Assembly: GCF_003231495.1 (NCBI RefSeq)
Contig: NZ_PQWO01000046.1
Coordinates: 1 to 16,218 of the forward strand
Source of the DNA: Acaryochloris thomasi RCC1774
GTDB taxonomy: Bacteria > Cyanobacteriota > Cyanobacteriia > Thermosynechococcales > Thermosynechococcaceae
Length of the DNA: 16,218 bases
Reading direction: 5' to 3'
The notes beneath the pieces are model-generated. The model searched no databases and was not told the DNA's origin. It saw nothing but the letters and a program-made list of their open reading frames with translations. A program made the translations under genes and the position numbers. Within the stretch, counting starts at the first letter, position 1. Every line of letters begins with the position of its first letter. This document shows, in pieces, positions 92 through 16,218 of the stretch.

Positions 92-367
92 ATGATACCT
101 GCACAACATACGACAGGCATTGCCTGTGGCGGTAAGCATCGCTGCTGGCTAGCCGTCTCTATTGGCCTTGCCTTCTTTCTGGCTACCCTATCGAGCGCCA
201 AACCTGCACAGGCTCTGTTCATTAACGGGTCTGAGTCATTTATTGCTCAATCTTTCCCACACGCTCGGGGCTTCTTCCCCTTCGCCGCGAAAGCCTTTGT
301 GGTTTTGAGTCTGACTTCTATCGCGCTTAGCTCCAACGGTTCAGATTCAACAAACGAGAATTCCTAA
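92..367 (+). CDS. Small exported/membrane protein, truncated paralogue of the pilin-like gene at 1323-1745
   Basis: GGAG at 81-84 lies 7 nt before the ATG. It has a long hydrophobic leader ending KPAQA. The following LFINGSESFIAQSFP matches QFLNGGREFFRTSFP of the downstream pilin-like ORF at the equivalent position. One further hydrophobic segment follows. Confidence 0.5.
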   Translation: MIPAQHTTGIACGGKHRCWLAVSIGLAFFLATLSSAKPAQALFINGSESFIAQSFPHARGFFPFAAKAFVVLSLTSIALSSNGSDSTNENS

Positions 368-371
368 GTTC

Positions 372-398
372 GGCTGAGCGCAATGACGCGCTTCAGCC
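372..398 (+). promoter_or_regulatory. Intercistronic stem-loop (GGCTGAGCGC / GCGCTTCAGCC, one bulged T, 6-nt loop) between the first pilin-like gene and the sigma factor gene
   Basis: Complementarity read directly. It sits 5 nt after the stop at 365-367. No downstream U-tract, so it could be an attenuator or mRNA-stability element rather than a strong terminator. Confidence 0.35.
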
Positions 399-420
399 AC
401 GCATTTGTGCAGGATTGCCG

Positions 421-1266
421 ATGATTAAATCCCCACCACTGGAACTAATCCGAGCAGCCCAGGCCAACGATCGGCGGGCCAGGGACAGAGTATTCTCTGC
501 CTCCTACGAATTCGTGTCGATGATCGCTAAGCGGTGGTCAAGTCGATACGCATGGCTTGAATATGACGATTGCCTACAGGCAGGATTTGAAGGAATCCCT
601 GTCGCCATTGAGCGCTTCGACTTTTCAGAAGGCGTTCAATTCTTCACCTATGCCAAATATGCAGTCTCAAACAGTATCCAAAAGCTGAAAAGAGCTGAAG
701 AGAAACAGCATCGAACCTACGAAAAAGCTGTTTCTGCCTACAGCGTTCCAATTGTTGAACCCCTGAGCTGGATTAGTGAGGCCCAATATAATCGCTCTCT
801 CCGCCGTCGCATTTACAGGGCGCTGAAGTCTTTTTCTCGCCTCCTCCGCAAGTGGGTGTTCCTTCGTTTGCTGGGTCGCTCCTATGTCAGTATTGCCGAA
901 CGCTTCAACGTCACGCGGCATCAGGTTGCAACTGAAGTGAAAGCTGCGATGCAAGTCTTGCGGCGGCGGCTGTTTCCAAAAGCCTATCGCTTCAAGCAGT
1001 CTTTGAAAACTTCACTGACACCCGGACAGGTGACTCGCCACAAGCCTGTTCCTGCTGTCAGTCCCACCCCGATTCAAGCGGTATTCAACCGACTGAGAAC
1101 GCTTAGCAGCGGCTTACTTAAGTCTGTGCAAAAGCGGGTTAGTCGAGCAATGCCAGCATTTCGCTTGAACTCGAAAAGGTCTAGCGACCATTCCGTCCAG
1201 CGTGCCAGCAGTCCTGTTGAGGCAGTCTCTGCGCCAGGGTTCGGTAGACCGCCGCCCCCTGGATAG
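421..1266 (+). CDS. Sigma-70 family RNA polymerase sigma factor, ECF-like (regions 2 and 4 only), with a C-terminal basic extension of about 97 aa
   Basis: Region 2 pattern: YEFVSMIAKRW...YDDCLQAGFEGIPVAIERFDFSEGVQFFTYAKYAVSNSIQ. Region 4 HTH: LLGRSYVSIAERFNVTRHQVATEVKAAMQVLRRRL. AGGA at 411-414 lies 6 nt before ATG 421. The ORF track starts at TTG 415, which is also possible. Confidence 0.8.
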   Translation: MIKSPPLELIRAAQANDRRARDRVFSASYEFVSMIAKRWSSRYAWLEYDDCLQAGFEGIPVAIERFDFSEGVQFFTYAKYAVSNSIQKLKRAEEKQHRTYEKAVSAYSVPIVEPLSWISEAQYNRSLRRRIYRALKSFSRLLRKWVFLRLLGRSYVSIAERFNVTRHQVATEVKAAMQVLRRRLFPKAYRFKQSLKTSLTPGQVTRHKPVPAVSPTPIQAVFNRLRTLSSGLLKSVQKRVSRAMPAFRLNSKRSSDHSVQRASSPVEAVSAPGFGRPPPPG

Positions 1267-1322
1267 ACTGCCCATACTTGTGTCCAAAATCCAGTTCTTC
1301 ATTACTAACAAAGGAAAAACCA

Positions 1323-1745
1323 ATGCTTGGTCCTCTGTATATTCCGCATGTGATCTTTTCCGCGATCGTCGTTTGTATCTGGGCCTACCCCCGGATTGCA
1401 AAGCGCTACTCCAAATACACCGCCCGTCTGACAATCGGGGTGATGGGATTCCTGGGTTTCAATATTCTCACCACCCTTCCAGCGCGGGCGCAGTTCCTTA
1501 ACGGTGGCAGAGAGTTCTTCAGGACTTCGTTCCCTGACACCACCGAACTGACGGACCTCCTCTTTAACATCATGCTGGCTGTCTATGTCATCTATATTGC
1601 TGTCTCTGCCTACCGGGTCTTCGGAGCCATGCGTTCAGAAGAAGGGGGAGAGTGGATCGAGATTGCTAAGACCCCTCTCAAGATTATTCTGGCGATCACC
1701 GTCATTGACTCCATGATTGCCTTAGTCGTTGATGGTGCTGGGTAG
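1323..1745 (+). CDS. VirB2/TrbC-like pilin candidate: long leader followed by two hydrophobic helices
   Basis: AAAGGA precedes ATG 1323, so the track start at 1278 is probably an upstream extension. The leader ends LPARA. The predicted mature part has two hydrophobic helices (LLFNIMLAVYVIYIAVSAY and LKIILAITVIDSMIALVV) separated by a charged loop. It lies immediately upstream of the VirB3-like and VirB4 genes. The call rests on architecture and position only. Confidence 0.55.
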   Translation: MLGPLYIPHVIFSAIVVCIWAYPRIAKRYSKYTARLTIGVMGFLGFNILTTLPARAQFLNGGREFFRTSFPDTTELTDLLFNIMLAVYVIYIAVSAYRVFGAMRSEEGGEWIEIAKTPLKIILAITVIDSMIALVVDGAG

Positions 1746-2089
1746 TGGCCAAATACCCTCTCACCGTTAGGAAAGCCCTGGGGAAGAAGGCTTCTCTGGG
1801 GCCAATTCCAGCAGACATGGTGGTGCCGTCCATCATGGGCTTCATCCTGGCATTGATGGCTAGGGGTGCCTTCAACCTCGACTGGCCGGTGGCCGTGATG
1901 CTCTGTGCGATGAGCTTCGTGTTCTACTTCTTCCTAGTCGGTCCCAAAAGCTGGAAGTTCTACAGCCTGTTCATCAAGACCCCGACCCTGATGCGGATTA
2001 TTCCTCGATACTTGAGTCCCAGCAGCTATGAAAGAAACCAAAGCCAGAAGAAAAGTCGCCGGACTAAAGGGAACCGTCGTCGGCGCTGA
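1745..2089 (+). CDS. VirB3/TrbD-like small inner-membrane protein
   Basis: GTG start overlaps the previous stop (TAGTG). It has two hydrophobic segments (VVPSIMGFILALMARGAF and VAVMLCAMSFVFYFFLV). Its size (114 aa) and its position directly upstream of VirB4 fit VirB3. The C-terminal tail is strongly basic. Confidence 0.55.
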   Translation: MAKYPLTVRKALGKKASLGPIPADMVVPSIMGFILALMARGAFNLDWPVAVMLCAMSFVFYFFLVGPKSWKFYSLFIKTPTLMRIIPRYLSPSSYERNQSQKKSRRTKGNRRRR

Positions 2090-4835
2090 AGACTGCCTCA
2101 ACGTCGCTGAGATTGTTGACTACCAGATGGAGGAGCACCAAGTGGGTGCTTACCAACTCCATAAGCGAGACAACATCAAGAATACGGATGTCTATCAACT
2201 GGTGTTTGGCTTTGAGGTGTCAGGCATCCATAGCTTTGCTTCCCCCCAAGACCTAGAAGATGCCACCCATAAGCTTGCTGCTGGCCTCAAGTCTGCCCCT
2301 CAGGGTGAAAGCCTCACCCTGAGGCTAACCACCGAATCGAACTGCGACCGTCGCACCCGCCAGTTGCAGAAGCTCCTTCAACGCGCCGGGTCGCCCGAGA
2401 TTAGGTATCTGCTGCAAAAGGAACTCGAACGACTGCAGCAGATCTCACAGAAGGGCATCCGCCAGCCTAAGACGCTGCGGGCCTACTGCACCTACAGCCC
2501 TTATCAAGCAAAGGCAAAAGATGATTGGTACGACAAAGTATCGGTGCAGCTTATGTCCATCTGGGATAAGTGCACCGACCAAGTTGATATCAAGGCACAG
2601 CAGGCGTTTGCCGACCTCTACGGGGATGCCTACGCCAATGGGTTCCTGGACTGGCTGCTGTACTTCGAGCAGCAGCTAGAGATATCCGTCACGCCCCTGT
2701 CTGCCGATGATCTGTGGGAAGACCTGTGGTATCGCTTTAACCGAGAGGAAGCGCCGGAGCTGCCCCAACGGGTTGTGTATACCCCAGAGGGAATCGAAGA
2801 GATCTACCATTCCCAGGCCCACTTTACCGGCCATCTGTTCAAGGAGAATGTACCTGATTTAGATCCGCGCTGGATTCGCAACAGGGGCCAGTTTACGGGA
2901 GTATTGGTCTTTCAAGAGAAACCCTTTGGATGGGCGACCCCCCAGCAGCAGCTCCAGTACCTGTGGAAGCCGATCACCGCCGATGATTGGCATGACTGCG
3001 AAGTGGTGACTGAGCTGCGGCCTGCCAATCAGAAGCAGGCGCTGCAGGGGGCAACCGACCTCGCCAAAGGAGCCAATCGTCAGGCCAATAACGCCGATAA
3101 CAAGAAGAAGATTAATCGTCTGGCCGAAAAGAGCAAAGAAGCGGCCATTGGAACCACCGATGCCCTCCTCGATGGTGAGGTGGCTTACTACGTCTCGACG
3201 GTCTTTTTGGTCCATCGCAAAACCCCGCGCCAGCTTGATATGGCTTGCGACAAGCTCTCGAAGATGTTCCGCTCACCGGCAGCGGTCGAGCGCGAGGAGC
3301 AGATTGCATGGCGGCTGTGGCTCGATACGTTTCCGGTGGTGATGCGAAAGATGCTGGCCCAGGTGCCCACCGACCGCCGCAGCATGTACTTCAGTAGTGA
3401 GGTGCCCGGTCTTGCGCCGCTACTCCGTACTCGCACCCCGGCCTTGAGCGGGTATGAATTCATCGCTGAGTGTGGCACACCTGTCTGTGTGGACCTGTAT
3501 AAGCAGCATCAGCATATGGGCTTCTTTGCGACCCAGCGTGGGGGCAAGTCTGTTACTATCGGTGGCATTTTGAGCCACGGGTTAGCTAATGATATTCCCA
3601 CCGTCATTTTGGACTACCCCAAAGGCAATGGTTCGAGTACCTATAAGTATTACAGCGCCTTCTTGCCGGACGCAGAGTACTTTGATATTGCCGAAGAATC
3701 AAACAACATCTTTGAAGCTCCTGATTGGCGACATCTCACCGTAAAGGAACAGAAGCAGCGCTTTAACAGCTTTCGAGAGTTCCTGGAAGGTGCGCTGCTG
3801 CTGCTGGTTAACAGCGGTAGTCAGGATGAGAAGCTGACGATGACGCTGCGAACGATCTTTGGCATCGCGCTCAGGGAGTTTTTCTCTGATCCTGGCATTC
3901 AGGCTCGATACCAGAAGGCGATGGATGGCGGGTTTGGCTCTGAAGATTGGAAGGAGACACCCACTCTACGAGACTTCAAGGCATTTTGCTCTAAGGCACG
4001 ACTGCCTGATATCAAGGGCAATACAGAAGACAACGATAAAGCGCTGGGTCTGATCAATCAGCGGCTAGAGTACTGGCTCCATAGCTCAGTGGGTAAGGCT
4101 ATCAGCCAGCCATCGAGCTTCCCCACCGATGCCAAGATGATCGTTTTTGCCCTGCGAAACTTGGGCACAGAAGAAGATGCTGCAGTACTGGCGCTGTCTG
4201 CCTACGCTGCTGCCCTGCGTCGGTCTTTAGAGCATGACAAGAGCATCTTCTTTATTGACGAAAGCCCGATTCTGTTTAAGTTTGATGCGATTGCGCGGCT
4301 GATTGCGACCCTAACGGCCAACGGTGGTAAGTCTGGCATTCGGGTGCTGTTGTCGGCTCAGGATGTCGATAGCATCGGTGAGAGTCCAGTCGGCTCTCAA
4401 ATCCTGCAGAACTTAACGATGGTGTTAATTGGGTTTATCAAGCCGAGTGCGGTGGCTTCCTTCGTTAAGTACTTGGGCTACCCAGAAGCGCTGATTCGAG
4501 AGAATACAAAATTCAAGCTCAATGCCAGTGACCTGTACTCTCGTTGGCTGATTATCGACGATGCGGCAAAGACGAAAGTGCGTCACTATGACACACCGGA
4601 GCGATTGGCCCTGCTAGCCAACAACCCCGATGAAGAGCGCAAGCGTGATGAGGTCTTTGCCGCTGTATCGGACAAGTACGAAGCCCTAGAGCAGTTCACA
4701 GCGCTGCTGTGGGAGTCCATCAAAACGGGCCAGAAGTTCTACGAGGATGAAGAAGAAGTGAAGCCTGAGGTACTGCCACAGGTCGAGAAACGGCCTCTGT
4801 TGTTGGCGGGTAACTTTACTGATGATGCGGCTTAA
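2028..4835 (+). CDS. virB4: VirB4/TrbE-family type IV secretion ATPase
   Basis: 935 aa. Walker A variant ATQRGGKS at 3528-3551. Walker B hhhhDE (SIFFIDES, with DE at 4257-4262). Size and position after the pilin-like and VirB3-like genes fit. The start is uncertain: ATG 2028 overlaps the upstream gene by 62 nt, and the next in-frame ATG is 2127. Confidence 0.9.
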   Translation: MKETKARRKVAGLKGTVVGAEDCLNVAEIVDYQMEEHQVGAYQLHKRDNIKNTDVYQLVFGFEVSGIHSFASPQDLEDATHKLAAGLKSAPQGESLTLRLTTESNCDRRTRQLQKLLQRAGSPEIRYLLQKELERLQQISQKGIRQPKTLRAYCTYSPYQAKAKDDWYDKVSVQLMSIWDKCTDQVDIKAQQAFADLYGDAYANGFLDWLLYFEQQLEISVTPLSADDLWEDLWYRFNREEAPELPQRVVYTPEGIEEIYHSQAHFTGHLFKENVPDLDPRWIRNRGQFTGVLVFQEKPFGWATPQQQLQYLWKPITADDWHDCEVVTELRPANQKQALQGATDLAKGANRQANNADNKKKINRLAEKSKEAAIGTTDALLDGEVAYYVSTVFLVHRKTPRQLDMACDKLSKMFRSPAAVEREEQIAWRLWLDTFPVVMRKMLAQVPTDRRSMYFSSEVPGLAPLLRTRTPALSGYEFIAECGTPVCVDLYKQHQHMGFFATQRGGKSVTIGGILSHGLANDIPTVILDYPKGNGSSTYKYYSAFLPDAEYFDIAEESNNIFEAPDWRHLTVKEQKQRFNSFREFLEGALLLLVNSGSQDEKLTMTLRTIFGIALREFFSDPGIQARYQKAMDGGFGSEDWKETPTLRDFKAFCSKARLPDIKGNTEDNDKALGLINQRLEYWLHSSVGKAISQPSSFPTDAKMIVFALRNLGTEEDAAVLALSAYAAALRRSLEHDKSIFFIDESPILFKFDAIARLIATLTANGGKSGIRVLLSAQDVDSIGESPVGSQILQNLTMVLIGFIKPSAVASFVKYLGYPEALIRENTKFKLNASDLYSRWLIIDDAAKTKVRHYDTPERLALLANNPDEERKRDEVFAAVSDKYEALEQFTALLWESIKTGQKFYEDEEEVKPEVLPQVEKRPLLLAGNFTDDAA

Positions 4836-4857
4836 GGGTTCGTAGAAGGGAGCAAGT

Positions 4858-5154
4858 ATGTTTCACATTATCGATCTCATCACCAATGTTTTGCTGCTTA
4901 CTCTGGCAATAGTTGTGCTGCCCTCAGCTTTGATTGGTGGTCTCTCTGCAGTTGATTGGAACCAGCAGAGCAAGCAGAACATTAACGAGCAAGTGGAACG
5001 CGAAGATCCGCAACTGCATCAACCATCTGTCAAGCCATCAACAGAGCCAAGACGGACGTTGAGACCTCTCTTGTCCGCAGCCGACAGACAGGCTTTCCAT
5101 AGCGACCCGCTAGCCCCTTTGATTCCAGACTCAAGCTCCACTTGCAATGAATAA
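4858..5154 (+). CDS. Small membrane-anchored protein (N-terminal TM, proline-rich tail), function unknown
   Basis: GGGAG lies 7 nt upstream of the ATG. The N-terminal hydrophobic helix is IIDLITNVLLLTLAIVVLPSALIGGL, followed by a hydrophilic P/S/Q-rich C-terminus. It lies in the operon between VirB4 and the secreted helical protein. Confidence 0.55.
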   Translation: MFHIIDLITNVLLLTLAIVVLPSALIGGLSAVDWNQQSKQNINEQVEREDPQLHQPSVKPSTEPRRTLRPLLSAADRQAFHSDPLAPLIPDSSSTCNE

Positions 5155-5166
5155 GTGGACGTCCAC
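5155..5166. repeat. Perfect 12-bp palindrome GTGGACGTCCAC, starting immediately after the stop codon at 5152-5154
   Basis: Read directly; the sequence is its own reverse complement. Confidence 0.6.
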
Positions 5167-5183: not shown

Positions 5184-5975
5184 ATGAAACGAAAACGAAT
5201 ACGAAAACTAGCACTCATTGGTGCGATCGCCATTCCGGTATCGCTGGGTATCGGGCAGAATGCTCAGGCTGCTGATTTTTTCGGCTCAAGACTCGGCGGC
5301 TTTGCCGAAGAAGTTGGCGGCGTAGGCGGTGACCTTTTCCGAGGTGCTTTTACTGCTGTCACTGGGTTTGAAAGTCCTCAGGTGTTTGCCCAAGATATGT
5401 TCTCTGACATCCTCGGTAAGGAGAAGCTAGACATTGCTGCCGCAGGAAATGTCGAGGATTACGTGGGTGAGCTAGGTAGTGTTGACCTGCAAAGCGCTGC
5501 TGAGGACAGTCAGGATAGCCTTCGGGGGCTGATCGAGGATGGTACCGGCATCATGACCAACATGGCATCTAAAGCTCAGGAGCAATCCTTTCAACGTGCT
5601 GCCATTAGCGCCAGTGCTAAGAATACCCTGTCCCAGGAAGCTCAGTCTGCTGCAAAGGCCAGTATCCAAAATACAGGGGATACGAATCAGAAGCAGGCTG
5701 AAGCGCTGACATCTGTGATGGACTTTACCGTGACCCAAGATGTCGCTAAATATCAGGCGGTTCTGGGTCAGACCCAAAACAACATCCTCGGCGATATCAA
5801 GTCAGGTCAGATTACTGCAGCTCAGAAGCAGGCCCAGACTAATCAATTGCTCTCAAATATCGATGGGTCTCTTGAGAAAATAGCAAATCAGGGCAGTAGC
5901 TCTAAAGAAGCTTACAGCCTGCTCAATGCCAGCAAAGGCCGTTTAACCGCCCTGCAGCCAACAGGCGCGAGGTAG
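5184..5975 (+). CDS. Secreted Q/A/S-rich, probably helical protein; positional equivalent of TrbJ/VirB5
   Basis: Signal peptide MKRKRIRKLALIGAIAIPVSLGIGQNAQA followed by ADFF. The 263-aa size fits, the composition is low in hydrophobic residues and rich in Q/A/S, and the gene sits between VirB4 and the VirB6-like gene as trbJ does in Ti-type trb operons. I recognised no family motif. Confidence 0.6.
   Translation: MKRKRIRKLALIGAIAIPVSLGIGQNAQAADFFGSRLGGFAEEVGGVGGDLFRGAFTAVTGFESPQVFAQDMFSDILGKEKLDIAAAGNVEDYVGELGSVDLQSAAEDSQDSLRGLIEDGTGIMTNMASKAQEQSFQRAAISASAKNTLSQEAQSAAKASIQNTGDTNQKQAEALTSVMDFTVTQDVAKYQAVLGQTQNNILGDIKSGQITAAQKQAQTNQLLSNIDGSLEKIANQGSSSKEAYSLLNASKGRLTALQPTGAR
5223..5230. repeat. 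HIP1 octamer GCGATCGC
   Basis: Exact match read directly. Confidence 0.9.
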
Positions 5976-5994: not shown

Positions 5995-6016
5995 GCGCCT
6001 CTGTTAACAGGGGCGC
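5995..6016 (+). promoter_or_regulatory. Intercistronic hairpin: 9-bp stem with one G-U pair (GCGCCUCUG / CAGGGGCGC) and UUAA loop
   Basis: Pairing read directly. It lies 20 nt after the stop at 5973-5975 and 8 nt before ATG 6024. No U-tract follows. Confidence 0.4.
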
Positions 6017-6023
6017 TAAGAAT

Positions 6024-6428
6024 ATGTTCAAAAGACCCCAGAAGGCTCCTAAAGGCTCTGCTGCATATCGAGAGCGAGTGACAGAAATGCTGCTTCAGGA
6101 AATGACGCGAGTTGAGCCTGGGTCTCCCGCCTATACCCAGTTGCTCGAACAGTTGACAACACTGTCGAGTGAGGATGAGTTATCCGAAAAAGAGAACGAT
6201 AGAAAGCGAGTTCAAAAGCTACTCAAGTCTCTTCCACAGATTTTTGCAATGCCTTGGTGGTTTCAAGTTGTTTTCATTAGTGTCATTATTTTTGGACTTG
6301 TATTGTTTATTGATGCTGTTGGTTTGTGGTTTGACTTTGATTTGCTTAGGAATGATCCCCCGCCGGTGCAAATCAGGCGGCACGCTACGCACGTTTTTCC
6401 TCCTAGCACAATTCATAGGATTCAGTGA
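6024..6428 (+). CDS. Single-pass membrane protein, function unknown; positional equivalent of trbK
   Basis: Hydrophilic N-terminus, one TM (WWFQVVFISVIIFGLVLFIDAVGLWF). Its stop TGA 6426-6428 is nested in GTGATG, the start region of the next gene, which suggests translational coupling. The GC content drops mid-gene at about 6170. Confidence 0.55.
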   Translation: MFKRPQKAPKGSAAYRERVTEMLLQEMTRVEPGSPAYTQLLEQLTTLSSEDELSEKENDRKRVQKLLKSLPQIFAMPWWFQVVFISVIIFGLVLFIDAVGLWFDFDLLRNDPPPVQIRRHATHVFPPSTIHRIQ

Positions 6429-7630
6429 TGTTTGAATATTCTCCCCTCACATCTGATCAACTCCTTTATGTTGAACCATCAGAGTACATTGGCCAGTCGA
6501 AAACGGTTTGGCGAAATCATCATAATCGAAAACTATTTTTAAGTCTCTGTCTAGTAGCATTTATTACTTTGATTTACCTCGTTTTGCCACATGAAGCGAC
6601 GGCTCAAGGCCCAATTGATGTAATCATTGAAGCCGGTACAGCCGTTCAAGAAGCAGTGTCAGATTCAGTTGAAGATATATGGGAAGATCAGCTTCCATTG
6701 TTTATGACACTTCTTAGCCAACTGTCTGTTGCAATCGCTGTTATTTCAATTATTGTTCTTGGTATGGAGTTGGTGCAAGAGCAAATTGATTGGGGGTATT
6801 TCACTTGGCAACGTGCAGTAATCCCTCTAGTGATGATGGGAGTAATTAGTCAAATAACTTTTATGGCTGATGTTGCCTATGGCCTGAGAAATGAGTTTAA
6901 TCAGCTCAGCACCAACGCCTATGAAACCTTCGGTATCCTGGAAACGATTGGTGAGGCAGGCGATGCTGATGCTTTGCCAAATGTTTTGTCATCAATATTT
7001 GAAGAATGTAATAAAGAAACAGTTGTTGATAGCAGGGCTTGTGCAGAAGATGCAATTGAGCAATCTGAGGCTATTTTAGATATTGAGGAAAGAAACTATC
7101 CTGGTGCGGGATGGATCGCATTTTACCGCAACCGAATTGAGGAATTTTCATCGAATATCTTGGATGATGGATTTAGTCTTTCAACTATTCCTGAAGTGTT
7201 TAGAGATATTAGTTTATCTTTTGTTCAGAACCAAATTACTGGATTATTTCTTTTTATATCTACGGGCCTCCAAGGTGCCATTCAGATACTATTTGAGGTT
7301 GTCCTATTTGTAACTTCATTGTTACTTCCTCTTGCCGTAGCAAGGTCTATTTCAGAAGGCTTTGGACCACTTGTTGCTTGGTTCTTAAAGATGTTTGAAT
7401 TCGCGTTGGTCAAGTTCCTGTACACCATACTTATTGGCATATCTAGTCTGATCTATATCAATGCCGGAGGAATAGGTGGAGGGATATGGTTTACCATGTT
7501 GGTTGGTTTTCTGGCCCCCTTACTTGCTTTTGGGATGCTTGCTGGCGGTGGCCTATCTGTTGTTCAAGGAATTATTGGAGCGGCTGGTTCTGTGGCGGGT
7601 GTTGCCGTGAAGGTTGCGAGGGCTATTTGA
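6425..7630 (+). CDS. Polytopic inner-membrane protein, VirB6/TrbL-like candidate
   Basis: 401 aa with multiple hydrophobic helices on both sides of a central acidic soluble loop of about 120 aa, and a glycine-rich hydrophobic C-terminus. Its position after the TrbJ-like gene fits. Start is GTG 6425 or ATG 6428. Codon usage is strongly A/T-ending, unlike VirB4. Confidence 0.6.
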   Translation: MMFEYSPLTSDQLLYVEPSEYIGQSKTVWRNHHNRKLFLSLCLVAFITLIYLVLPHEATAQGPIDVIIEAGTAVQEAVSDSVEDIWEDQLPLFMTLLSQLSVAIAVISIIVLGMELVQEQIDWGYFTWQRAVIPLVMMGVISQITFMADVAYGLRNEFNQLSTNAYETFGILETIGEAGDADALPNVLSSIFEECNKETVVDSRACAEDAIEQSEAILDIEERNYPGAGWIAFYRNRIEEFSSNILDDGFSLSTIPEVFRDISLSFVQNQITGLFLFISTGLQGAIQILFEVVLFVTSLLLPLAVARSISEGFGPLVAWFLKMFEFALVKFLYTILIGISSLIYINAGGIGGGIWFTMLVGFLAPLLAFGMLAGGGLSVVQGIIGAAGSVAGVAVKVARAI

Positions 7631-8135: not shown

Positions 8136-8147
8136 TGGATTCTCCTT

Positions 8148-8188
8148 CTCTCTGCCTTCTCTGATCTATTATTTTTGTATTTGTTCCT
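8148..8188. promoter_or_regulatory. AT-rich core of a 62-bp divergent intergenic region; candidate overlapping divergent promoters
   Basis: Only about 40 bp remain between the two SD sequences (AAGGAG for the minus gene, GGAGG at 8189-8193 for the plus gene). The region contains TATTAT at 8167-8172. No convincing -35 element is present. Confidence 0.3.
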
Positions 8189-8197
8189 GGAGGCTTT

Positions 8198-8797: not shown

Positions 8798-8814
8798 CGC
8801 AAGTTGCCCCTACG

Positions 8815-9309: not shown

Positions 9310-9311
9310 AA

Positions 9312-9776: not shown

Positions 9777-9874
9777 TTCATTACCAGATTCATTTGCTAC
9801 CCCTAATTTGACACACAGGGCTATCAGGCAACCAAAACCAGCCTGATTTCCCACCCAATTACAGCAAATCACCT

Positions 9875-9913: not shown

Positions 9914-10726
9914 GTGTTAAAAACCCTAACCCGCCCCAGGCGGACAACAGAACCACCTGAGGAGTCCTCAGAACCACTGCGGAAGTCCCCTGCCACCCGG
10001 CAGGGTAACTTCCATAAGTTTGTAGCTGCTGCCCTAGGCTTACAAATCTTCACAGCCTTGGGTGTGCTGCTGCTGGGGATGGGCTACTTACGCCTATCGA
10101 GCCGCCCTCCAGTGCTGGTGGAGCGGGCCAATGGCGAAGCATTCCAGGCAGAGCAAAAGGGGCCAGACTATCGAGACCCCAAAGCCATCCAAGAGTTTGT
10201 AGAGACCATGTACGGCTCTTTGTATAACTGGTCGAAGGTGACGACGGCCAACGCTGGCTTCAAGGCAGAGACGGGCTACCAGCGGGGCAAGGTGAATATC
10301 CCGCTGCGAATGGCCGCTGCAGAGTTTGGCCTGTCGCCCGAGGGCCAGTTTCGAGCCGGTGTCCTCGACGAGCTAGCGGAGAACTACGGCAGATATGCCC
10401 GCTCGATTCGGGCAGGGGACTTCTCGCAACTGATCAACATTCGGGCCGTGTCGAAGCCCATCCCCCTTGAAGACGGGGGCTGGAAAGTATCCATCGTGTC
10501 AGATTTGGTGATCACCTCCCGCACCGCCAGACCGGAGAATATCGGCCTCAATCAGACGGTGTATATCACCCCAGACCACCGAGATAAGCTGCCGGTGCCC
10601 ACCAATGAGTTTGAGGGGCATCGCAACGAAATCAGAGCCTATGGCCTGCTGATCTACGCCATCCGCGATATCGAAATTGATGACCCTACCGTTGATGAGG
10701 ATCTGAGCTATGACCGAGAAAATTAA
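9914..10726 (+). CDS. Bitopic membrane protein, VirB8/TrbF-like candidate
   Basis: The SD TAGGAG precedes the GTG start. It has a short basic cytoplasmic N-terminus, a single TM (FVAAALGLQIFTALGVLLLGMGYL), and a periplasmic domain of about 200 aa. Size and position immediately before the VirB10-like gene fit. The call rests on architecture only. Confidence 0.5.
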   Translation: MLKTLTRPRRTTEPPEESSEPLRKSPATRQGNFHKFVAAALGLQIFTALGVLLLGMGYLRLSSRPPVLVERANGEAFQAEQKGPDYRDPKAIQEFVETMYGSLYNWSKVTTANAGFKAETGYQRGKVNIPLRMAAAEFGLSPEGQFRAGVLDELAENYGRYARSIRAGDFSQLINIRAVSKPIPLEDGGWKVSIVSDLVITSRTARPENIGLNQTVYITPDHRDKLPVPTNEFEGHRNEIRAYGLLIYAIRDIEIDDPTVDEDLSYDREN

Positions 10727-12107
10727 ATTCTATCCAGGGTCAGAAGCTGAGCTGGATGAGCCAGATGTCGAACAAAGCAGCGGAGAAGGCGTCGATACTT
10801 CCCCTATATCGATCGATATTCCAGACCACTCCAATCATTACGAAGATGAAGAGTCGCTGCTGCCGGAGGACTTTGATGCTGAAGATCTAGAGGTTGAGCA
10901 AGCGCGGACCCAACGGCATCCGATGCAGACGCCTTGGACAAAGATGGCTGTGGTGATGGCCGGTACAGCGGTTGCCTTCGGTCTGTTGATGATGTGGTAC
11001 AACTCAGCCAAAGGCGTCAAGCTCACTAAGGAGGATGAGAAAACCGAACGAATTGAGTTTGTCACTAAAGCAGAGATCAATCAAAACAGCGATCGCATCA
11101 ACAGCGCCGTTCAGAAAGGCAACATCGAGCGGAAGCTGGCCGCAGAACGACTGGCAGAGGAAGAGAAGAAGCGTCAGAAGGCAGAGAAACAAACCTCTAC
11201 CCAGCGTCCCCCCGCTCGTCCGTCAACCGCTAGCCGCTCATCATCGCCTGCTCCCCCGCCCAGAACCTATCGTCCTCCCCCGCCGCGCCCTCGAATAGCC
11301 GCTCGTCCAGCTCCACCCCCACCACGACCCGCTAGTCGTCCAGCCCCAGCCCCTCAATCTGCACCCCGGCCAGCACCAGCTCCGGTCGTCGCCAAAGCTG
11401 AACCCGTGGATCGCTCTCCGGTCTATGGTGGTCAACTGCCTGCGACCCAAGCACCTCCAACGCAGCCAAATCAAGCTGATTTTGAGACTGAGCTGGTGTC
11501 CCAGGAGCCTGAGTTTAACGAGAGCTATGCCGATAATTCGCCCTTGTCTACCCAACAGAGCGCCTTCCTTCAGGGCCAGACCCTAGCCACCATCCCCTCC
11601 GGTACCACGCTCAAGGCAGATATCCAGTCAGAAGCGATCGCCTCCGATAGCGCCACCTTTACTGCCATTACCCGCGAGGAAATTGCGGGAATTCCGAAGG
11701 GAGCCAAAGTCTTGGCGCAGATTGTTCAGCTAGCCCCAGGGGGTTCCTTTGAAGCAGAAGTGATCGCACTCAATGGGGCTGAGATACCCCCTGGTTCAAC
11801 TCGGATTTTGAGGGGCAATGGAAAACTGATGCGGGCCAAAGGCAGTAAGCCCAAAAAGGGCTTCTTCCAAAGTGGCCTAGGCCGGATGATCACCGGCTTT
11901 GCCCAGGATGCCGGAGAGAGCTGGGTCCGAGATCAGGTGGGGGGCAACCGGACGATCAGCAATGGTGCGAGAGATGTGCTGGTGCTGAGCGACCCGACGA
12001 GAACCTCACGGCCCCCTAACCCCAAAGATCCTAGGGAAGCTTCAGTACTCATCCCCACCGGCAGCATTGAGATCACGTTCGAGCAAGACACTCTTATTTC
12101 GAGGTAG
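10710..12107 (+). CDS. VirB10/TrbI-like protein
   Basis: Acidic N-terminus, TM (WTKMAVVMAGTAVAFGLLMMWY), a K/E-rich helix, then a proline-rich spacer (about 11205-11390). The C-terminal domain shows TrbI-like patterns: TIPSGTTLKADIQSEAIASD, IPKGAKVLAQIVQ, and the terminal VLIPTGSIEITFEQD. The gene overlaps the upstream gene by 17 nt. Confidence 0.7.
   Translation: MTEKIKFYPGSEAELDEPDVEQSSGEGVDTSPISIDIPDHSNHYEDEESLLPEDFDAEDLEVEQARTQRHPMQTPWTKMAVVMAGTAVAFGLLMMWYNSAKGVKLTKEDEKTERIEFVTKAEINQNSDRINSAVQKGNIERKLAAERLAEEEKKRQKAEKQTSTQRPPARPSTASRSSSPAPPPRTYRPPPPRPRIAARPAPPPPRPASRPAPAPQSAPRPAPAPVVAKAEPVDRSPVYGGQLPATQAPPTQPNQADFETELVSQEPEFNESYADNSPLSTQQSAFLQGQTLATIPSGTTLKADIQSEAIASDSATFTAITREEIAGIPKGAKVLAQIVQLAPGGSFEAEVIALNGAEIPPGSTRILRGNGKLMRAKGSKPKKGFFQSGLGRMITGFAQDAGESWVRDQVGGNRTISNGARDVLVLSDPTRTSRPPNPKDPREASVLIPTGSIEITFEQDTLISR
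11089..11096. repeat. HIP1 octamer GCGATCGC
   Basis: Exact match read directly. Confidence 0.9.
11634..11641. repeat. HIP1 octamer GCGATCGC
   Basis: Exact match read directly. Confidence 0.9.
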
Positions 12108-12112
12108 AAAGC

Positions 12113-13522
12113 ATGTTCAGCAAAAATATACCGGCTCTAGTTGTCGCTGGAGCTGCAACCAGCATCGCTTTATCGGCAGCATTACCGGCGCAGGCCACTC
12201 AGCGGTTAACCCTATCGCAAGCAGCAGAGAAGGCGAAAGTTCATCTCAACCCTAGTGAAGGGGTGTACATTCAGCTCCCGGCTTCTATGCCGATTTACAC
12301 CTACTCCATTGACGATGGCTCTGTACTAACCCTTGGCGATAAATTCAGCCCTGGCATGAACATCCTGCGGATTGTGGGTCAGAACCCTGGAAAGACAGGC
12401 ATGGGTTTGGTGGTTCAGGGCAGCTCTGGGTACCAGACGCTCAACTTCTCGGTGCATGTCGGCAAGAAGGGCAGTCAAGGGACCATTCAAATCACTGAGG
12501 ATGCCCCTCAAGTTGAAGCGGAGTCGGCTCGAAAAGCGACTGATGCTGCCCTGCAAACGTCGAACTATCCGTCAGATTTGGTGCGGAGTGGCTTGAGCCT
12601 TGCCAATATTCAAGGTCAGATACCGGCAGGTTCTCCCCTCGATATTGCCGTCAACCAATGGATTGATGCTGTTGAGCAGGGTGCCAGTGAAGGTGATGCT
12701 TCTCGTCAAACCGGCGTTCAGTCCAACGTGCTGCAAAAGCTGACTGATTTGGGGCAGACGACCCCTATCGCCCAGGCCCCGACCCCTGAAGCTGCACCAC
12801 CTGAGACTGCTGCTACTCCTGTTGCGGAAGCACCACCTGAGGCCACCGTCACTCCCGTTTCAGAAGTTGCTAAAACACCTGCTCTTGAGCTGGATGAGAA
12901 GCTGAAGGCTGTCAGGGAGCGGATAGCAGCTCTAGAAGAGCAGGTTGAGTCGAACACCAATGAGTTATCGGAGCAGGAGCAGATTCTGGCCCAGGTAGAA
13001 GCGCAGCAGCAAACCTTTCTGGCCCGGTTTGATGACATCGATGCCCAGAGCAAACAATTCTTAGCTGAGCTAGGGGATATCAAAGAGACTGATATTGCGT
13101 CTGTGGAATCTCCTCAACCTCAGGTCGATCAGGAGGTCGCCGCCGCTCCGGAGCCACAGCCTCAGACAGTTACAGAGACTGAAGCGACACCTGAGAGTGG
13201 TGCTGAAACACAAACCACTGTAGTGATCACACCTGAGGAGCAACCCCCTCAAGCCATTGAGGATTCAGTAGAGGTAAAAGATTCCTTAGGGGAGTTGACA
13301 CCCATCGAGCTAGCCCACGCCATCAAACAAGGTTTGCACCAGAATACTGAGGACTATCCCTACCGCTCTTGGAAGTATCGGCAGGTCAATAACGCGGTCC
13401 TGATTCTCAAGCGAGGAAATTCGATTGAGACTGCCTCCAAGTGGTCGGGGATTGAACTGAAGGCTCTGAGAAAACTGGCCGGTGTAATGCCCCTTCAAGT
13501 GAGTCAGGGGGTTGTCCAATGA
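12113..13522 (+). CDS. Secreted multidomain protein: N-terminal beta-rich domain (possibly VirB9/TrbG-like), P/E/A/T repeats, coiled coil, C-terminal globular domain
   Basis: GAGG lies 8 nt upstream of the ATG. Signal peptide is MFSKNIPALVVAGAATSIALSAALPAQA. The N-terminal domain (YIQLPASMPIYTYSIDDGSVLTL...NILRIVGQNPGKTGMGLVVQGSSGYQTLNFSVHV) loosely resembles the VirB9 N-terminal pattern. The position next to the VirB10-like gene fits. Confidence 0.6.
   Translation: MFSKNIPALVVAGAATSIALSAALPAQATQRLTLSQAAEKAKVHLNPSEGVYIQLPASMPIYTYSIDDGSVLTLGDKFSPGMNILRIVGQNPGKTGMGLVVQGSSGYQTLNFSVHVGKKGSQGTIQITEDAPQVEAESARKATDAALQTSNYPSDLVRSGLSLANIQGQIPAGSPLDIAVNQWIDAVEQGASEGDASRQTGVQSNVLQKLTDLGQTTPIAQAPTPEAAPPETAATPVAEAPPEATVTPVSEVAKTPALELDEKLKAVRERIAALEEQVESNTNELSEQEQILAQVEAQQQTFLARFDDIDAQSKQFLAELGDIKETDIASVESPQPQVDQEVAAAPEPQPQTVTETEATPESGAETQTTVVITPEEQPPQAIEDSVEVKDSLGELTPIELAHAIKQGLHQNTEDYPYRSWKYRQVNNAVLILKRGNSIETASKWSGIELKALRKLAGVMPLQVSQGVVQ
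12794..12865 (+). repeat. In-frame tandem duplication, 2 x 36 bp, encoding APPETAATPVAE / APPEATVTPVSE
   Basis: GCACCACCTGAG recurs at 12794 and 12830 (period 36 bp). 8 of 12 residues are identical between the two units. Confidence 0.6.
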
Positions 13523-15222
13523 ACCGATTAGCAGCTACTTCATTAGGAGTGATAACGCTTGCGCTGACGACCCTTCAGGCCAGCGCGATTGTAGACCCCT
13601 TCGAGAGGCCAACGTTAGACAATCTCTCGTTCGGCCAGCTACCGGCCACCGATACCAATGGTGCAATCGAGATCCCTGGTGGTCCCACTGTCCACTGGGA
13701 GCGGGGTGAATCTCCTGCTGACTACCTGCCGCTGGGTGTGATCATGGATAGCCTGGGGGCAGGAGATCTGACGCTCAATGAGATTGGTGATGCCATCGGG
13801 ATTAGTCCCGGCGATTACACCCTGGATGATTTTTTCCCAGTCAAATGGCAAACCCTTCAGCATTTAGTCGATGCGGTTCCCGAACTGCCGAACTATCGAG
13901 TTGCCGATGTAAAGCCGATATTTGATGCATTGGGCGGTCAATATGCCGATTCTCTGATCGTCAATTTACCGACTGAAGCCCTCTCCCAGACCCTCGATGT
14001 TGACAAGCTGGTGGATTACTCAATCCACGATATCCCCAACCTAGCCAATACGCCCCTTGATCACTTTGACCGTGCGGGATGGTCAGAGATCTATGGGATT
14101 CCCGGCTTAGAGGATCTGCCGCTGAGCAATTACCCCACTGCTCTCAAGCAGCCGTTCTGGGCAAAAGTGGATATTGTCTACGGCGATAAGGAATCGACGC
14201 GTAGAGACACCATTACCGGGTCTGTTCAGGAGAATAGCTGGTCGGTCCCTTGCGAGAAGCCCTGTGCCTACCTAGAGATGACCAATGCTCACACCACCAG
14301 CGGTAACTTGAGCAAGTTTGGCTATCACGGTAAGCATTATATTGCCGGTGACTTCCAGAAGGTTAAAGGGGGCTGGGCCGGTCAAGAGAGCAACTGGGTG
14401 GGCGGCTACGAACCGACCGGCCAGCTTCCCTTCGGTGATTTTGCCAAGGTCTCTGCCTCAGACTTGACCGAACAGAAGGGTAAAGGCCAGTTGCGGCTGA
14501 ACTACCGATATTGTGAGCGGAGCTTTGGGGTGACGAAAGCCTGTACCCCTTATGGCGTTACAGGTGGGATCTTGTCTACTCCCTTTCTGCCATTCAAAGA
14601 GACCGGGATTATTCCCGTGATGGCCCTGACGGGGGCACCCGCGAACAACGGCAGTCCATCGAAGGAGGACACAGCCGACGTTGATAAAACGGATCCGCGT
14701 AAAGCAGAAGGGGGAGCCAGTAGCCCGATCAGTGGCATTAATCCGCCGAAGCTTGGCTCGTCTGAGCAGGGGCAGTCGAGTACGCAGCCGTCCCCTGCCG
14801 AGGAAGAGGAGTGTGAAGGACCGCCTCTACGTCCTGGTGCGGGTTATCGGATTACGAGCGGTTATGGCCCTCGCCCTCGCCCCTGCCCTACCTGCTCTAG
14901 TTTCCATAAGGGAGTAGATATTGGAACCCCTATGGGTACTCCACTTCAAGCTGCACAAACAGGCACAATTGTCGAAACTAGGGTTGCTCAATTTAATGGA
15001 CTTTTTGTGAAGATCAAAGCCTGTGATGGCTGGACATACTCCTATCTTCACCTAAGCGAAGTTTGGTTGAAGGAGGGGCAGAAGGTAGAGAAAGGGGAAA
15101 GTATTGCCAAAAGTGGAGGTGTTGGACCTTTAGCAGGATCTTCCACTGGTCCTCATCTTCACGTCAGTACACTGAACCCAAGTGGCACTGCAGTAGATCC
15201 CAATGGCTACATCAATTTCTGA
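13519..15222 (+). CDS. Secreted protein with an unknown N-terminal domain of about 440 aa and a C-terminal M23 (LytM-type) metallopeptidase domain; candidate peptidoglycan hydrolase of the secretion apparatus
   Basis: ATGA start/stop overlap with the upstream gene. Signal peptide is MNRLAATSLGVITLALTTLQASA. The M23 domain lies at about 14842-15219, with GYRITSGYGPR, the HxxxD motif (HKGVD, H codon at 14905-14907) and the HxH motif (HLH at 15154-15162). Confidence 0.85.
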   Translation: MNRLAATSLGVITLALTTLQASAIVDPFERPTLDNLSFGQLPATDTNGAIEIPGGPTVHWERGESPADYLPLGVIMDSLGAGDLTLNEIGDAIGISPGDYTLDDFFPVKWQTLQHLVDAVPELPNYRVADVKPIFDALGGQYADSLIVNLPTEALSQTLDVDKLVDYSIHDIPNLANTPLDHFDRAGWSEIYGIPGLEDLPLSNYPTALKQPFWAKVDIVYGDKESTRRDTITGSVQENSWSVPCEKPCAYLEMTNAHTTSGNLSKFGYHGKHYIAGDFQKVKGGWAGQESNWVGGYEPTGQLPFGDFAKVSASDLTEQKGKGQLRLNYRYCERSFGVTKACTPYGVTGGILSTPFLPFKETGIIPVMALTGAPANNGSPSKEDTADVDKTDPRKAEGGASSPISGINPPKLGSSEQGQSSTQPSPAEEEECEGPPLRPGAGYRITSGYGPRPRPCPTCSSFHKGVDIGTPMGTPLQAAQTGTIVETRVAQFNGLFVKIKACDGWTYSYLHLSEVWLKEGQKVEKGESIAKSGGVGPLAGSSTGPHLHVSTLNPSGTAVDPNGYINF

Positions 15223-15231
15223 GGATTATCT

Positions 15232-15861
15232 ATGAAAATGAAACGTGCTGGAATTCTTCTTCTTCTGCTCGCTATTTCCATCGCAATGGTGAGAGTGCTT
15301 GTCGGTACCAGCACTCCAGCGAGTTCTAGTAGCAACAATCGCCCTGAGATTCCGGTAGATAAAGACTGTAGGGCCGAAGGTTGGACACACACACTAATTG
15401 GGGAGTCATCGGAAGCAGGCGTTCGTTATCAACTGGTTGATAGCCAAGATCCCGATGGCTACTATCACCTGAATGTCGTTCAAGTCGATAATGCCGGATG
15501 CAAGGCTCTCACCTATCCAGGGGATGATCATCCCATTCTTGGTAATCATGTTCCTTACGCAGTTGCTGTAGATCTTGCAAAAGCAAGTTGGTCTAGGGAT
15601 ATGGAAACTATGGGCGGCAAACAACAAATGGAGCAGCGCTTAGCTTCAACAACAGTTTCCCTAGATCTTGGTGACAACATTGATCTCTATTCCTGGGATT
15701 TAGCAGCCTTGGATCAGCTTGGGGTTAACTATCCCGATTATGTAAAACCTCTGGATGAATTTGCCAGCCGTTCCGAAGCCCAAGAATACTATGAGCCGAT
15801 TTATACAAAGCAATGGCAAAAGGAAAATAATTACGACAATCGTTTTCATGGAGCAGACTAA
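15232..15861 (+). CDS. Exported or membrane-anchored hypothetical protein (209 aa)
   Basis: GAGGA overlaps the upstream stop and lies 6 nt before the ATG. The N-terminal signal/anchor is MKMKRAGILLLLLAISIAMVRVLVG. No recognised domain. Confidence 0.6.
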   Translation: MKMKRAGILLLLLAISIAMVRVLVGTSTPASSSSNNRPEIPVDKDCRAEGWTHTLIGESSEAGVRYQLVDSQDPDGYYHLNVVQVDNAGCKALTYPGDDHPILGNHVPYAVAVDLAKASWSRDMETMGGKQQMEQRLASTTVSLDLGDNIDLYSWDLAALDQLGVNYPDYVKPLDEFASRSEAQEYYEPIYTKQWQKENNYDNRFHGAD

Positions 15862-16218
15862 TGCCTAGCCAAAGCCCAAGAGTAGATACGACATCCGCAC
15901 GATCGGCAGAATCCGAAACGCGACAGACGACTGAAAAGACCGCAACGCTGCTGTTGCTATTGCTCAAGCAGTGGAAGCATCACGCGCCTCCCGACATCCA
16001 GGCAAAGATCGGCCCCAACCCTGAAGTGTCAGTGCGGGTGGGTGAAGAAGTCTATAAGGGTTTGGCTGACAGCCCCGCGATACGAGCCATTCCCAAAGAT
16101 GATTTAGACTACCTGAAAATTGCCACCGGCATGGCTCAGGGATATTCCCATGCCGACCTGACGCGAGATGTGGAGATCAAGGTAGGGGGTCGCAAAGTCT
16201 TCGAGGTGGCCGGTGGTA
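15861..16218 (+). CDS. 5' part of a further plus-strand gene that runs off the window (not in the supplied ORF track)
   Basis: My own translation from ATG 15861 (TAATG overlap with the previous stop) reads MPSQSPRVDTTSARSAESETRQTTEKTATLLLLLLKQWKHHAPPDIQAKIGPNPEVSVRVGEEVYKGLADSPAIRAIPKDDLDYLKIATGMAQGYSHADLTRDVEIKVGGRKVFEVAGG. There is no stop before the window end. Confidence 0.5.
   Translation, partial: MPSQSPRVDTTSARSAESETRQTTEKTATLLLLLLKQWKHHAPPDIQAKIGPNPEVSVRVGEEVYKGLADSPAIRAIPKDDLDYLKIATGMAQGYSHADLTRDVEIKVGGRKVFEVAGG

Follow-up and report, generated by a model that had tools for sequence, protein, structure and literature searches.

Which machine is encoded by the long series of genes on a 16,218-bp contig from the draft genome of the cyanobacterium Acaryochloris thomasi RCC1774, and does it belong to a known class? 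The contig was analyzed over its whole length and is referred to below as the window. We consider it likely that the window is the channel and pilus module of a type IV secretion system (T4SS) of mating-pair-formation class C (MPF-C), most probably carried on a conjugative A. thomasi plasmid. A first-pass annotation of this DNA had proposed a T4SS cluster of MPF-C, or of a similarly obscure class, with a nearly complete parts list. This proposal stood, since all core genes map to the MPF-C model, plasmid alpha of Nostoc PCC 7120; the cyanobacterial background that it had read from the letters is that of the actual host.

Gene layout of the window

The RCC1774 draft comprises 72 contigs, and according to its authors plasmid fragments are possible among them (PMC6002478). 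Nineteen open reading frames (ORFs) were called in the window, forming a dense series of long ORFs from position 92 to the contig end. The spacing of plus-strand neighbours is mostly an overlap or a gap of 48 nt or less (-1, -62, -4, -17, -4, -4 and 5-48 nt), which is consistent with translational coupling along the cluster. All nine core ORFs are full length and without frameshifts. A megablast search of the whole window against plasmids gave no match, and scans of the window for Rfam families, repeats, promoters and terminators gave nothing above chance and no nameable candidate resembling an origin of transfer (oriT).

The first-pass annotation had described the series as co-directional. 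This held in so far as most plus-strand neighbours have start/stop overlaps or gaps of at most 48 nt; the exceptions are 7623-8135 and the DUF29 gene (9312-9872), both encoded by the minus strand. The predicted topologies of the 155-, 114-, 263-, 134-, 401-, 270-, 465-, 469- and 567-aa products were as it had described them, and the cluster does run past 16218, the last ORF (15858-16218) being cut by the contig end. Its gene list was incomplete: it gave one pilin-like gene where two pilin-like ORFs are present (92-367 and 1278-1745), and it omitted the genes for a sigma-70-like protein (415-1266) and a TPR protein (8198-8797) as well as a 164-aa ORF (8815-9309).

The 935-aa protein is a predicted VirB4-fold ATPase

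Translation of 2028-4835 placed Walker A (ATQRGGKS) at 3528-3551 and Walker B, the DE within FFIDES, at 4257-4262, exactly as first annotated. K507 and E745 do not vary among 118 family representatives, and G506 and D744 hardly vary. A tblastn search gave 132 cyanobacterial plasmid matches, 111 of which span at least 80% of the ATPase at 38-41% identity. They come from Nostoc, including both large plasmids of PCC 7120, Acaryochloris, Gloeothece and others, and identity to these plasmid VirB4s is 37-41% over more than 90% of the length. Word-indexed homologue searches returned 5-6 proteins each, even with a profile; the family was recovered by exhaustive HMMER searching of 1.84 billion cluster representatives, which yielded 573 relatives (292 at E ≤ 1e-30). 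Identity to any 50%-identity cluster representative outside the window's own cluster reached at most 40%.

The relatives connect this family to known VirB4 proteins. Of 52 examined, 46 matched the NCBIfam TraC-F-type model (best 3.7e-18) and 39 matched VirB4_CagE (best 1e-14), while a TraD coupling-protein model was matched by nine. Alignment of the ATPase family with F TraC by hhalign covered 411 columns, the whole C-terminal domain, with 95% probability and E 2.9e-8; alignments with coupling proteins and VirB11 were confined to the surroundings of Walker A. An AF2 (AlphaFold2) model built from a 52-sequence alignment (pLDDT 86.7, pTM 0.82) was compared with the PDB using Foldseek. The top 13 matches were full-length R388 TrwK/VirB4 chains (E 1.3e-24 to 1.6e-18), and superposition on TrwK gave ~940 aligned columns and TM 0.55/0.64. 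Next came the C-terminal domain of a Thermoanaerobacter VirB4 (5e-11). HerA and the coupling protein TrwB were found at E 2.5e-8 over the C-terminal domain alone, so that the full-length VirB4 match is ~16 orders of magnitude better.

In a bootstrapped neighbour-joining tree rooted with two outgroups (Ti VirB4 and F TraC) and built without MPF-I and MPF-G sequences, the window protein, its A. thomasi paralogue and three metagenome proteins formed one clade (bootstrap 99), sister to the clade with alr7206 of Nostoc. One metagenome protein and that of A. marina pREB8 branched deeper, and both outgroups fell outside the cyanobacterial clade, in which the window protein is placed with a bootstrap of at least 99. 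Overall, the plasmid relatives, the family-wide model matches, the alignment to TraC and the predicted fold identify the 935-aa protein as VirB4, modelled as a two-domain ATPase with intact Walker A and B. The full-length VirB4 fold match and the TraC/VirB4 family matches led us to reject an ATPase of the FtsK, HerA or TraB type, or a coupling protein. The first-pass annotation had made its proposal depend on this point, and by both fold and tree the ATPase falls inside VirB4.

Nine genes are collinear with the MPF-C model locus

MPF-C was defined from VirB4 phylogeny in 2012 (PMC3548315) and received its profiles in 2014, with plasmid alpha of Nostoc PCC 7120 as the model and eight class-specific accessory profiles around its VirB4 (PMC4027160). 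On that plasmid alr7206 is VirB4, alr7213 the coupling protein and alr7199 the relaxase (PMC8600333). Its RefSeq annotation has two genes before the VirB4 gene and six between the VirB4 and coupling-protein genes. The same pattern was seen in Chroococcidiopsis, on plasmid beta and for most genes of Allocoleopsis, and in permuted form in Gloeothece.

Nine window genes proved homologous to and collinear with alr7204-alr7212 by BLAST and/or hhalign, the latter being a pairwise comparison of small family alignments of the window type and the Nostoc type:

1278-1745, plus strand: small membrane protein of the alr7204 family, 155 aa, candidate pilin; signal-like segment and two transmembrane (TM) segments, a VirB2/TrbC-like topology; hhalign E 1.9e-23.
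1745-2089, plus strand: VirB3-like protein of the alr7205 family, 114 aa; two TM segments; overlaps the VirB4 gene from directly upstream; hhalign E 1.6e-12.
2028-4835, plus strand: VirB4-family ATPase of the alr7206 orthologue group, 935 aa (PZD70273.1, 'hypothetical protein'); 37-39% identity.
5184-5975, plus strand: secreted, predicted-helical protein of the alr7207 family, 263 aa; signal peptide; occupies the VirB5/TrbJ position of other systems; hhalign E 1.8e-7, BLASTP E 7.8e-5.
6425-7630, plus strand: polytopic membrane protein of the alr7208 family, VirB6-like, 401 aa; ~7 TM segments; hhalign E 1.6e-25.
9914-10726, plus strand: bitopic protein of the alr7209 family, VirB8-like, 270 aa; TM residues 36-54; hhalign E 2.4e-27.
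10710-12107, plus strand: VirB10/TrbI-like protein, 465 aa, matching alr7210; TM 79-97, Pro-rich linker ~160-230 and a C-terminal domain; hhalign E 1.7e-14.
12113-13522, plus strand: secreted 469-aa protein of the alr7211 family (N-terminal ~200 aa), presumed to be the VirB9/TraV-like outer component; signal peptide, Pro/Glu-rich coiled-coil, C-terminal domain; residues 13-217 match alr7211 residues 7-237, hhalign E 3.9e-12.
13519-15222, plus strand: secreted fusion of an alr7212 domain and an M23 endopeptidase, 567 aa, by Pfam and hhalign; signal peptide; N-terminal ~340 aa match alr7212, hhalign E 3.3e-55, BLASTP E 6e-41.

Several of these proteins were also found in the compared loci by direct sequence search. 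The 155-aa protein had BLAST matches in L001, L002, L008-L010 and L015, the VirB6-like protein in L001, L002, L009, L010 and L015, and the VirB8-like protein in L001, L002 and L008-L010. The VirB3-like protein matched L002 by tblastn at ~1e-13 to 1e-15 and was also matched in L003 (66% identity), L004 and L005.

With a VirB4 of the cyanobacterial clade, all eight accessory families beside it and a cyanobacterial host, membership of the cluster in the MPF-C class is supported. The neighbours of the ATPase thus belong to the MPF-C machine and not to another described one. Two emphases of the first-pass annotation need correction: the position of the VirB10-like gene before the VirB9-like gene, treated as an exception, is the standard order across MPF-C loci, and the novelty of the system was overstated, the class and its eight accessory profiles dating from 2012-2014.

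Similarity along the cluster is mosaic. The upstream genes (pilin-like, VirB3, VirB4, VirB6 and VirB8) are nearest to Nostoc-type loci, and the downstream ones (VirB10-like, 469 aa, M23 fusion and 209 aa) to a plasmid of Picosynechococcus PCC 7003. MOB-suite typing in PLSDB labels these cyanobacterial plasmids 'MPF_T'; the tool does not distinguish MPF-C, whose systems it appears to have mis-typed here.

VirB10-like protein and the canonical VirB parts

The alr7210 proteins of the Nostoc type pass the Pfam TrbI model (3.7e-14, residues 298-512). By hhalign, residues 281-386 of the 465-aa window protein align with alr7210 285-412, the first half of the TrbI domain only. Because the aligned alr7210 segment lies within the TrbI domain, the VirB10 assignment is a transitive one; the bitopic architecture with a Pro-rich linker fits it. 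The first-pass annotation had recognised motifs only in the C-terminal domains of VirB4 and VirB10. That of VirB4 held, and that of VirB10 was not detected by Pfam and is reached by the transitive link only. The nearest database relatives of the 465-aa protein are on Picosynechococcus and A. marina plasmids, and full-length homologues of the 469-aa protein are on Picosynechococcus plasmids.

No significant hhalign match supported VirB5 homology of the 263-aa protein or VirB9 homology of the 469-aa protein, and a Pfam scan of 44 accessory family members gave one weak TrbC/VirB2 match (E 0.0026), in the alr7204 family. Profile-profile links of MPF-C parts to VirB3, VirB6, VirB8, VirB9 and VirB10 have been published (PMC4027160). 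Since direct comparison was not significant, equivalence to VirB2, VirB3, VirB5, VirB6, VirB8 and VirB9 rests on topology, gene order and that published work.

An M23 endopeptidase joined to the alr7212 domain

In the 567-aa protein the alr7212-family domain occupies residues ~30-365 and contains four invariant cysteines (C245, C249, C332 and C342). The M23 domain lies at residues 462-561 and was detected by Pfam Peptidase_M23 (E 2.9e-21, 75.9 bits with a cut-off of 28.7 bits) and by an NCBIfam ShyA/MepM match (E ~1e-18). The H-x-x-x-D stretch (H463-K-G-V-D467) and the H-L-H stretch can be read in both translation and alignment. The predicted peptidoglycan hydrolase of the first-pass annotation is therefore confirmed at the level of domain and motifs. 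The same fusion is present in L003, L004 and Picosynechococcus PCC 7003, and the alr7212 domain stands alone in Nostoc (L001, 21841-23037). A model of the fusion from a 6-sequence alignment (pLDDT 48.6) was too poor for a fold search.

Among the compared loci, L008 (21629-23479) included, the Allocoleopsis homologue of alr7212 carries a different C-terminal extension of ~230 aa with no family or PDB match. A lysozyme-like identity of that extension was considered and found no support in Pfam and PDB sequence searches.

Conjugation genes lie beyond the homologous region in syntenic loci

Pfam and NCBIfam scans of the window proteins revealed no relaxase, coupling protein or VirB11, in agreement with the first reading. 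Two metagenome contigs, L003 and L004, show gene-by-gene synteny with the window that starts at the sigma-like gene and extends to the cut last ORF. Protein conservation with them is 36-72%; VirB4 is 72% identical in L003 and 52% in L004, and the cut last gene 74% and 55-61%, respectively. In L004 a VirD4-type coupling protein (T4SS-DNA_transf, TrwB_AAD_bind and TraG-D_C) directly follows the homologue of the last gene. L014, a longer view of the 72%-identity contig L003, has a 374-aa gene, a 465-aa gene and then the coupling-protein gene, with a TrwC+DUF3854 relaxase gene ~5 kb further on. Plasmids of Picosynechococcus and A. marina encode the nearest database relatives of the VirB10-like, 469-aa, M23 and 209-aa proteins. 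Relatives from these two hosts combine the M23 peptidase with a coupling protein and a MobF relaxase, and relatives occur on plasmids with MOBF, MOBV or MOBP relaxases. As the syntenic contigs carry both genes beyond the homologous region, their absence here is best explained by the contig ending at 16218. This end cuts the gene whose L004 homologue stands just ahead of the coupling-protein gene.

A second copy of the cluster is present in A. thomasi. Its VirB4 (84% identity) and M23 protein (85%) are encoded on one 38,473-bp contig, and their accessions are nine apart, which fits the L003 arrangement without the 164-aa/DUF29 insertion. Scans of genome collections for relatives gave a single match, a metagenome-assembled genome of Snowella.

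The Picosynechococcus PCC 7003 plasmid (L006, NZ_CP016476.1 28908-59321) runs from the VirB8-like gene to the coupling-protein gene and carries MobF. Its gene table lists no VirB4 gene upstream, and a strawberry-notch-like helicase gene stands in that place; the cluster may be truncated or the table incomplete.

Other genes of the window

The remaining ten ORFs are as follows:

92-367, plus strand: 91-aa ORF, a possible second pilin-like precursor, weakly supported; signal peptide, one hydrophobic segment; no family match.
415-1266, plus strand: sigma-70 family-like protein, 283 aa, by Pfam, PHROG and synteny.
4858-5154, plus strand: 98-aa ORF with one TM segment, not conserved; no family match; gene status uncertain.
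6024-6428, plus strand: single-TM protein, 134 aa, lineage-specific; homologue in L003.
7623-8135, minus strand: conserved 170-aa protein that splits the cluster in two; homologues in L003 and L004; no family match.
8198-8797, plus strand: secreted TPR protein, 199 aa; weak TPR matches, best E 2.9e-4.
8815-9309, plus strand: 164-aa ORF, window-specific cargo or insertion; no homologue in related loci, no family match.
9312-9872, minus strand: DUF29 protein, window-specific insertion, probably unrelated to secretion; Pfam DUF29 E 4.7e-56.
15232-15861, plus strand: 209-aa protein with an N-terminal hydrophobic segment, lineage-specific; no family match.
15858-16218, plus strand: 5' part of a gene interrupted at 16218, the product of which has 342-374 aa in relatives; homologues in L003 and L004.

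The sigma-like protein matched Pfam Sigma70_r2 at the curated threshold (E 3.2e-5), with a weak region-4 match, and a PHROG sigma factor at E 1e-15. Its gene is conserved in position in L003 (45% identity), L004 and L005, and the protein is 41% identical over 80 aa to a sigma factor beside the T4SS of A. marina pREB8. A tblastn search against plasmids gave two unrelated matches only, which indicates that the gene is not widespread on plasmids. The protein is likely to be a dedicated transcription factor of the cluster, judging by its family matches and its position. On either side of this gene, the 91-aa and 155-aa ORFs share a signal-peptide and cleavage region (BLASTP E 1e-5) with the motif A-x-A|(L/Q)F(I/L)NG...SFP; it reads AQA|LFINGSESF..SFP in the 91-aa ORF and is also common to the pilin-like protein of L004. 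The two ORFs may be pilin-like paralogues flanking the sigma-like gene.

Lineage-specific genes are conserved to different degrees. The 98-aa ORF had no homologue in L003, L004 or the other loci. A homologue of the 134-aa protein (47% identity) occupies the corresponding position in L003; in L004 a 51-aa gene stands there. The 170-aa minus-strand protein has a single hydrophobic segment near its N-terminus and is basic in its C-terminal half. It recurs, with position and orientation preserved, at 47% identity in L003 (E 6e-53) and at 26% in L004 (E 3e-14), and a role in regulation or exclusion is conceivable. Its gene shares 8 nt with the 3' end of the VirB6-like gene. L003 encodes a homologue of the TPR protein (50% identity) in the corresponding place and L004 lacks one, and the 209-aa protein has positional homologues in L003 (50%), L004 (30%) and, weakly, L006. 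The 164-aa ORF and the DUF29 gene are absent from L003 and L004 and, from the accession spacing, probably also from the paralogous A. thomasi cluster; 8815-9872 looks like a recent insertion within the secretion cluster.

The G+C fraction is 0.40-0.47 across 6000-9000 and 0.51-0.58 in the flanks, and AT skew is strongly negative over 7000-8500. The dip spans the VirB6-like gene, the minus-strand 170-aa gene and the TPR gene. A near-perfect palindrome of 22 nt, GCGCCTCTGTTAACAGGGGCGC, lies at 5995-6016, within the 48 nt that separate the 263-aa from the 134-aa gene.

Discussion

A number of observations weigh against the window being an MPF-C channel module. Pfam, CagE_TrbE_VirB included, has no match on the ATPase, which scores 17.3 bits on NCBIfam TraC-F-type with a cut-off of 567 bits and reaches VirB4_CagE at E 0.058, and thereby stays below the curated cut-offs of TIGR00929 and TIGR02746. 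A 12-sequence VirB4-like profile searched against PDB sequences found HerA/FtsK Walker-A matches alone (E ~0.03), and the tree is a neighbour-joining one with only the two outgroups. No Pfam match, TrbI (PF03743) included, was obtained for the 465-aa VirB10-like protein, and no significant match resulted when the accessory families were compared by hhalign with individual Ti and F proteins. The window itself yielded no coupling protein, relaxase or oriT, and operon expression might be impaired by the cargo insertion and by the pair of genes on the minus strand. MPF-C as a class is without experimental dissection and was termed hypothetical for lack of functional work in a 2025 review (PMC12282955). 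Scores below the cut-offs of curated models are to be expected, since MPF-C is one of the two most divergent VirB4 clades (PMC3548315).

The profile matches to HerA/FtsK and the silence of Pfam, together with a UniRef name that refers to a TraD/TraG domain, could be explained by an envelope machine other than a T4SS, built around a HerA/FtsK-like P-loop ATPase. This explanation is effectively refuted by the preference of the fold search for full-length VirB4, N-terminal domain included, by the family-wide TraC/VirB4 matches and a VirB10 family that is TrbI-positive, by the VirB3-, VirB6- and VirB8-like topologies and by the coupling protein and relaxase of syntenic loci. Those last two genes, a VirD4-type coupling protein and a TrwC relaxase beside the same genes in the nearest syntenic contigs, also speak against an MPF-C-type T4SS in non-conjugative use (delivery of proteins or toxins, DNA release or uptake, adhesion or pilus display), as do the plasmid location of relatives with relaxases of three types and the failure to recognise effector-like or toxin/immunity genes in the window. 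We regard such a use as improbable, even though it would agree with a window free of relaxase and coupling protein, with extra secreted proteins (263, 469, 209 and, for the TPR protein, 199 aa) of unassigned role, with two 84%-identical copies in A. thomasi and with the absence of functional studies of MPF-C (PMC12282955).

Slightly less probable still is an inactive or decaying remnant, that is, a duplicated and partly rearranged cluster that no longer builds a machine. A remnant could accumulate the window-specific 164-aa ORF and DUF29 insertions and tolerate a paralogous copy in the same genome, and the PCC 7003 plasmid, which lists no VirB4 gene, is typed only as 'mobilizable'. However, the core ORFs are intact, VirB4 retains its catalytic residues, H-x-x-x-D and H-x-H can be read in the M23 domain, the start/stop overlaps are preserved, and the level of protein conservation with L003 and L004 fits purifying selection.

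How an MPF-C conjugation module of this kind would work can be outlined by analogy with R388 and VirB, to which we are confined for every step because no MPF-C system has been dissected experimentally. The cluster-encoded sigma-70-like factor would turn on the operons. Small proteins bearing signal peptides (1278-1745 and perhaps 92-367) would be processed to pilin, and the VirB3-like protein and VirB4 would form an inner-membrane ATPase complex driving assembly of pilus and channel on an inner-membrane platform of the polytopic VirB6-like and bitopic VirB8-like proteins. The VirB10-like protein would cross the envelope by way of its Pro-rich linker, with the secreted alr7211-like protein supplying the outer part. 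Local cutting of peptidoglycan cross-links by the alr7212/M23 fusion would permit passage through the thick cyanobacterial wall, a role held by VirB1 in the VirB system. A VirD4-type coupling protein and a TrwC/MOBF-type relaxase, presumably encoded past 16218, as they are in the syntenic contigs, would deliver single-stranded DNA to the channel. The only plasmid of a cyanobacterium for which transmission has been reported is pCC7120alpha (Muro-Pastor 1994, as cited in PMC8600333 and PMC12282955); the 1994 report, the one exception to the lack of functional MPF-C studies, is described as marker transfer between Anabaena megaplasmids (PMC12282955).

The plasmid alpha locus is the closest model in organisation. 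It shares with the window the order of nine genes (pilin-like, VirB3-like, VirB4, alr7207, VirB6-like, VirB8-like, VirB10, alr7211 and alr7212), a cyanobacterial host and, through relatives of the window, a coupling protein downstream. The two loci differ in several respects: the window VirB4 is only 37-39% identical and falls in a sister clade, Pfam TrbI does not detect its VirB10-like protein, an M23 domain has been joined to its alr7212 domain, and its alr7211-like protein has a C-terminal extension of ~250 aa. The window lineage has extra genes as well: the sigma-70-like, 134-aa, minus-strand 170-aa, TPR and 209-aa genes and the 342-374-aa gene ahead of the coupling protein. Plasmid alpha has a MobV relaxase, in contrast to the TrwC/MOBF-type enzyme of syntenic contig L014.

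Picosynechococcus (PCC 7003/7002) and A. marina pREB plasmids resemble the window in a VirB8-like protein, a VirB10-like protein, a secreted protein of ~390 aa, an M23 peptidase, a small protein, a coupling protein and a plasmid-borne MobF relaxase, and pREB8 has a sigma-70 factor gene beside its cluster. The upstream half of the window is nearer to the Nostoc type than to these plasmids. Identity between the pREB8 VirB4 and the window ATPase is only 22-23%, no alr7212 domain could be detected in the M23 protein of A. marina (1027 aa), unlike in that of the window, and the PCC 7003 locus differs in having no listed VirB4 gene.

More distant is the MPF-T type of R388 Trw and Agrobacterium VirB. 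It shares the VirB4 fold (TrwK, Foldseek E 1e-24) and the presence of a cell-wall hydrolase; topologies of the VirB2, VirB3, VirB6, VirB8 and VirB10 counterparts are comparable in MPF-T and Ti Trb, and the gene order resembles trbC-D-E-J-K-L-F of Ti-type Trb operons. Compared with MPF-T the window lacks VirB11 and a recognisable VirB7 lipoprotein, and its hydrolase is an M23 endopeptidase fusion and not a VirB1 lytic transglycosylase. VirB10 stands ahead of the putative VirB9 counterpart, unlike in MPF-T and Trb, and sequence similarity to those systems is undetectable except for VirB4 (by fold) and VirB10 (transitively). F TraC (MPF-F) is the best sequence-level link outside cyanobacteria, at ~17% identity, whereas the F-specific TraF, TraH, TraN, TraU and TraW are absent from the window.

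By sequence comparison, the window lineage is a divergent and rare member of the already recognised MPF-C and not a new kind of machine, because its architecture is partly present in annotated Picosynechococcus and A. marina plasmids. A further proposal, which we hold tentatively and at a little less than an even chance, is that it represents a distinct MPF-C sub-type, with alr7212 as a peptidoglycan module that recruits a hydrolase, alr7204 as the missing pilin, and control by the sigma factor of the cluster. The members of this sub-type to date would be both A. thomasi copies plus a few metagenome contigs, and Picosynechococcus plasmids share part of its architecture.

The window provides a compact, intact and divergent MPF-C copy from a culturable marine strain. 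Its comparison with the Nostoc and Picosynechococcus types narrows the truly conserved parts of MPF-C to nine genes, shows which parts are lineage add-ons and suggests testable roles for two orphan components, as partner of a wall hydrolase and as pilin. If the sub-type reading is true, these would be the first functional clues to orphan MPF-C parts, and a sigma factor encoded by the cluster, if true, would be an unusual control logic for conjugation genes. In practical terms, the locus would bear on gene flow among cyanobacterial megaplasmids and on native conjugation tools.

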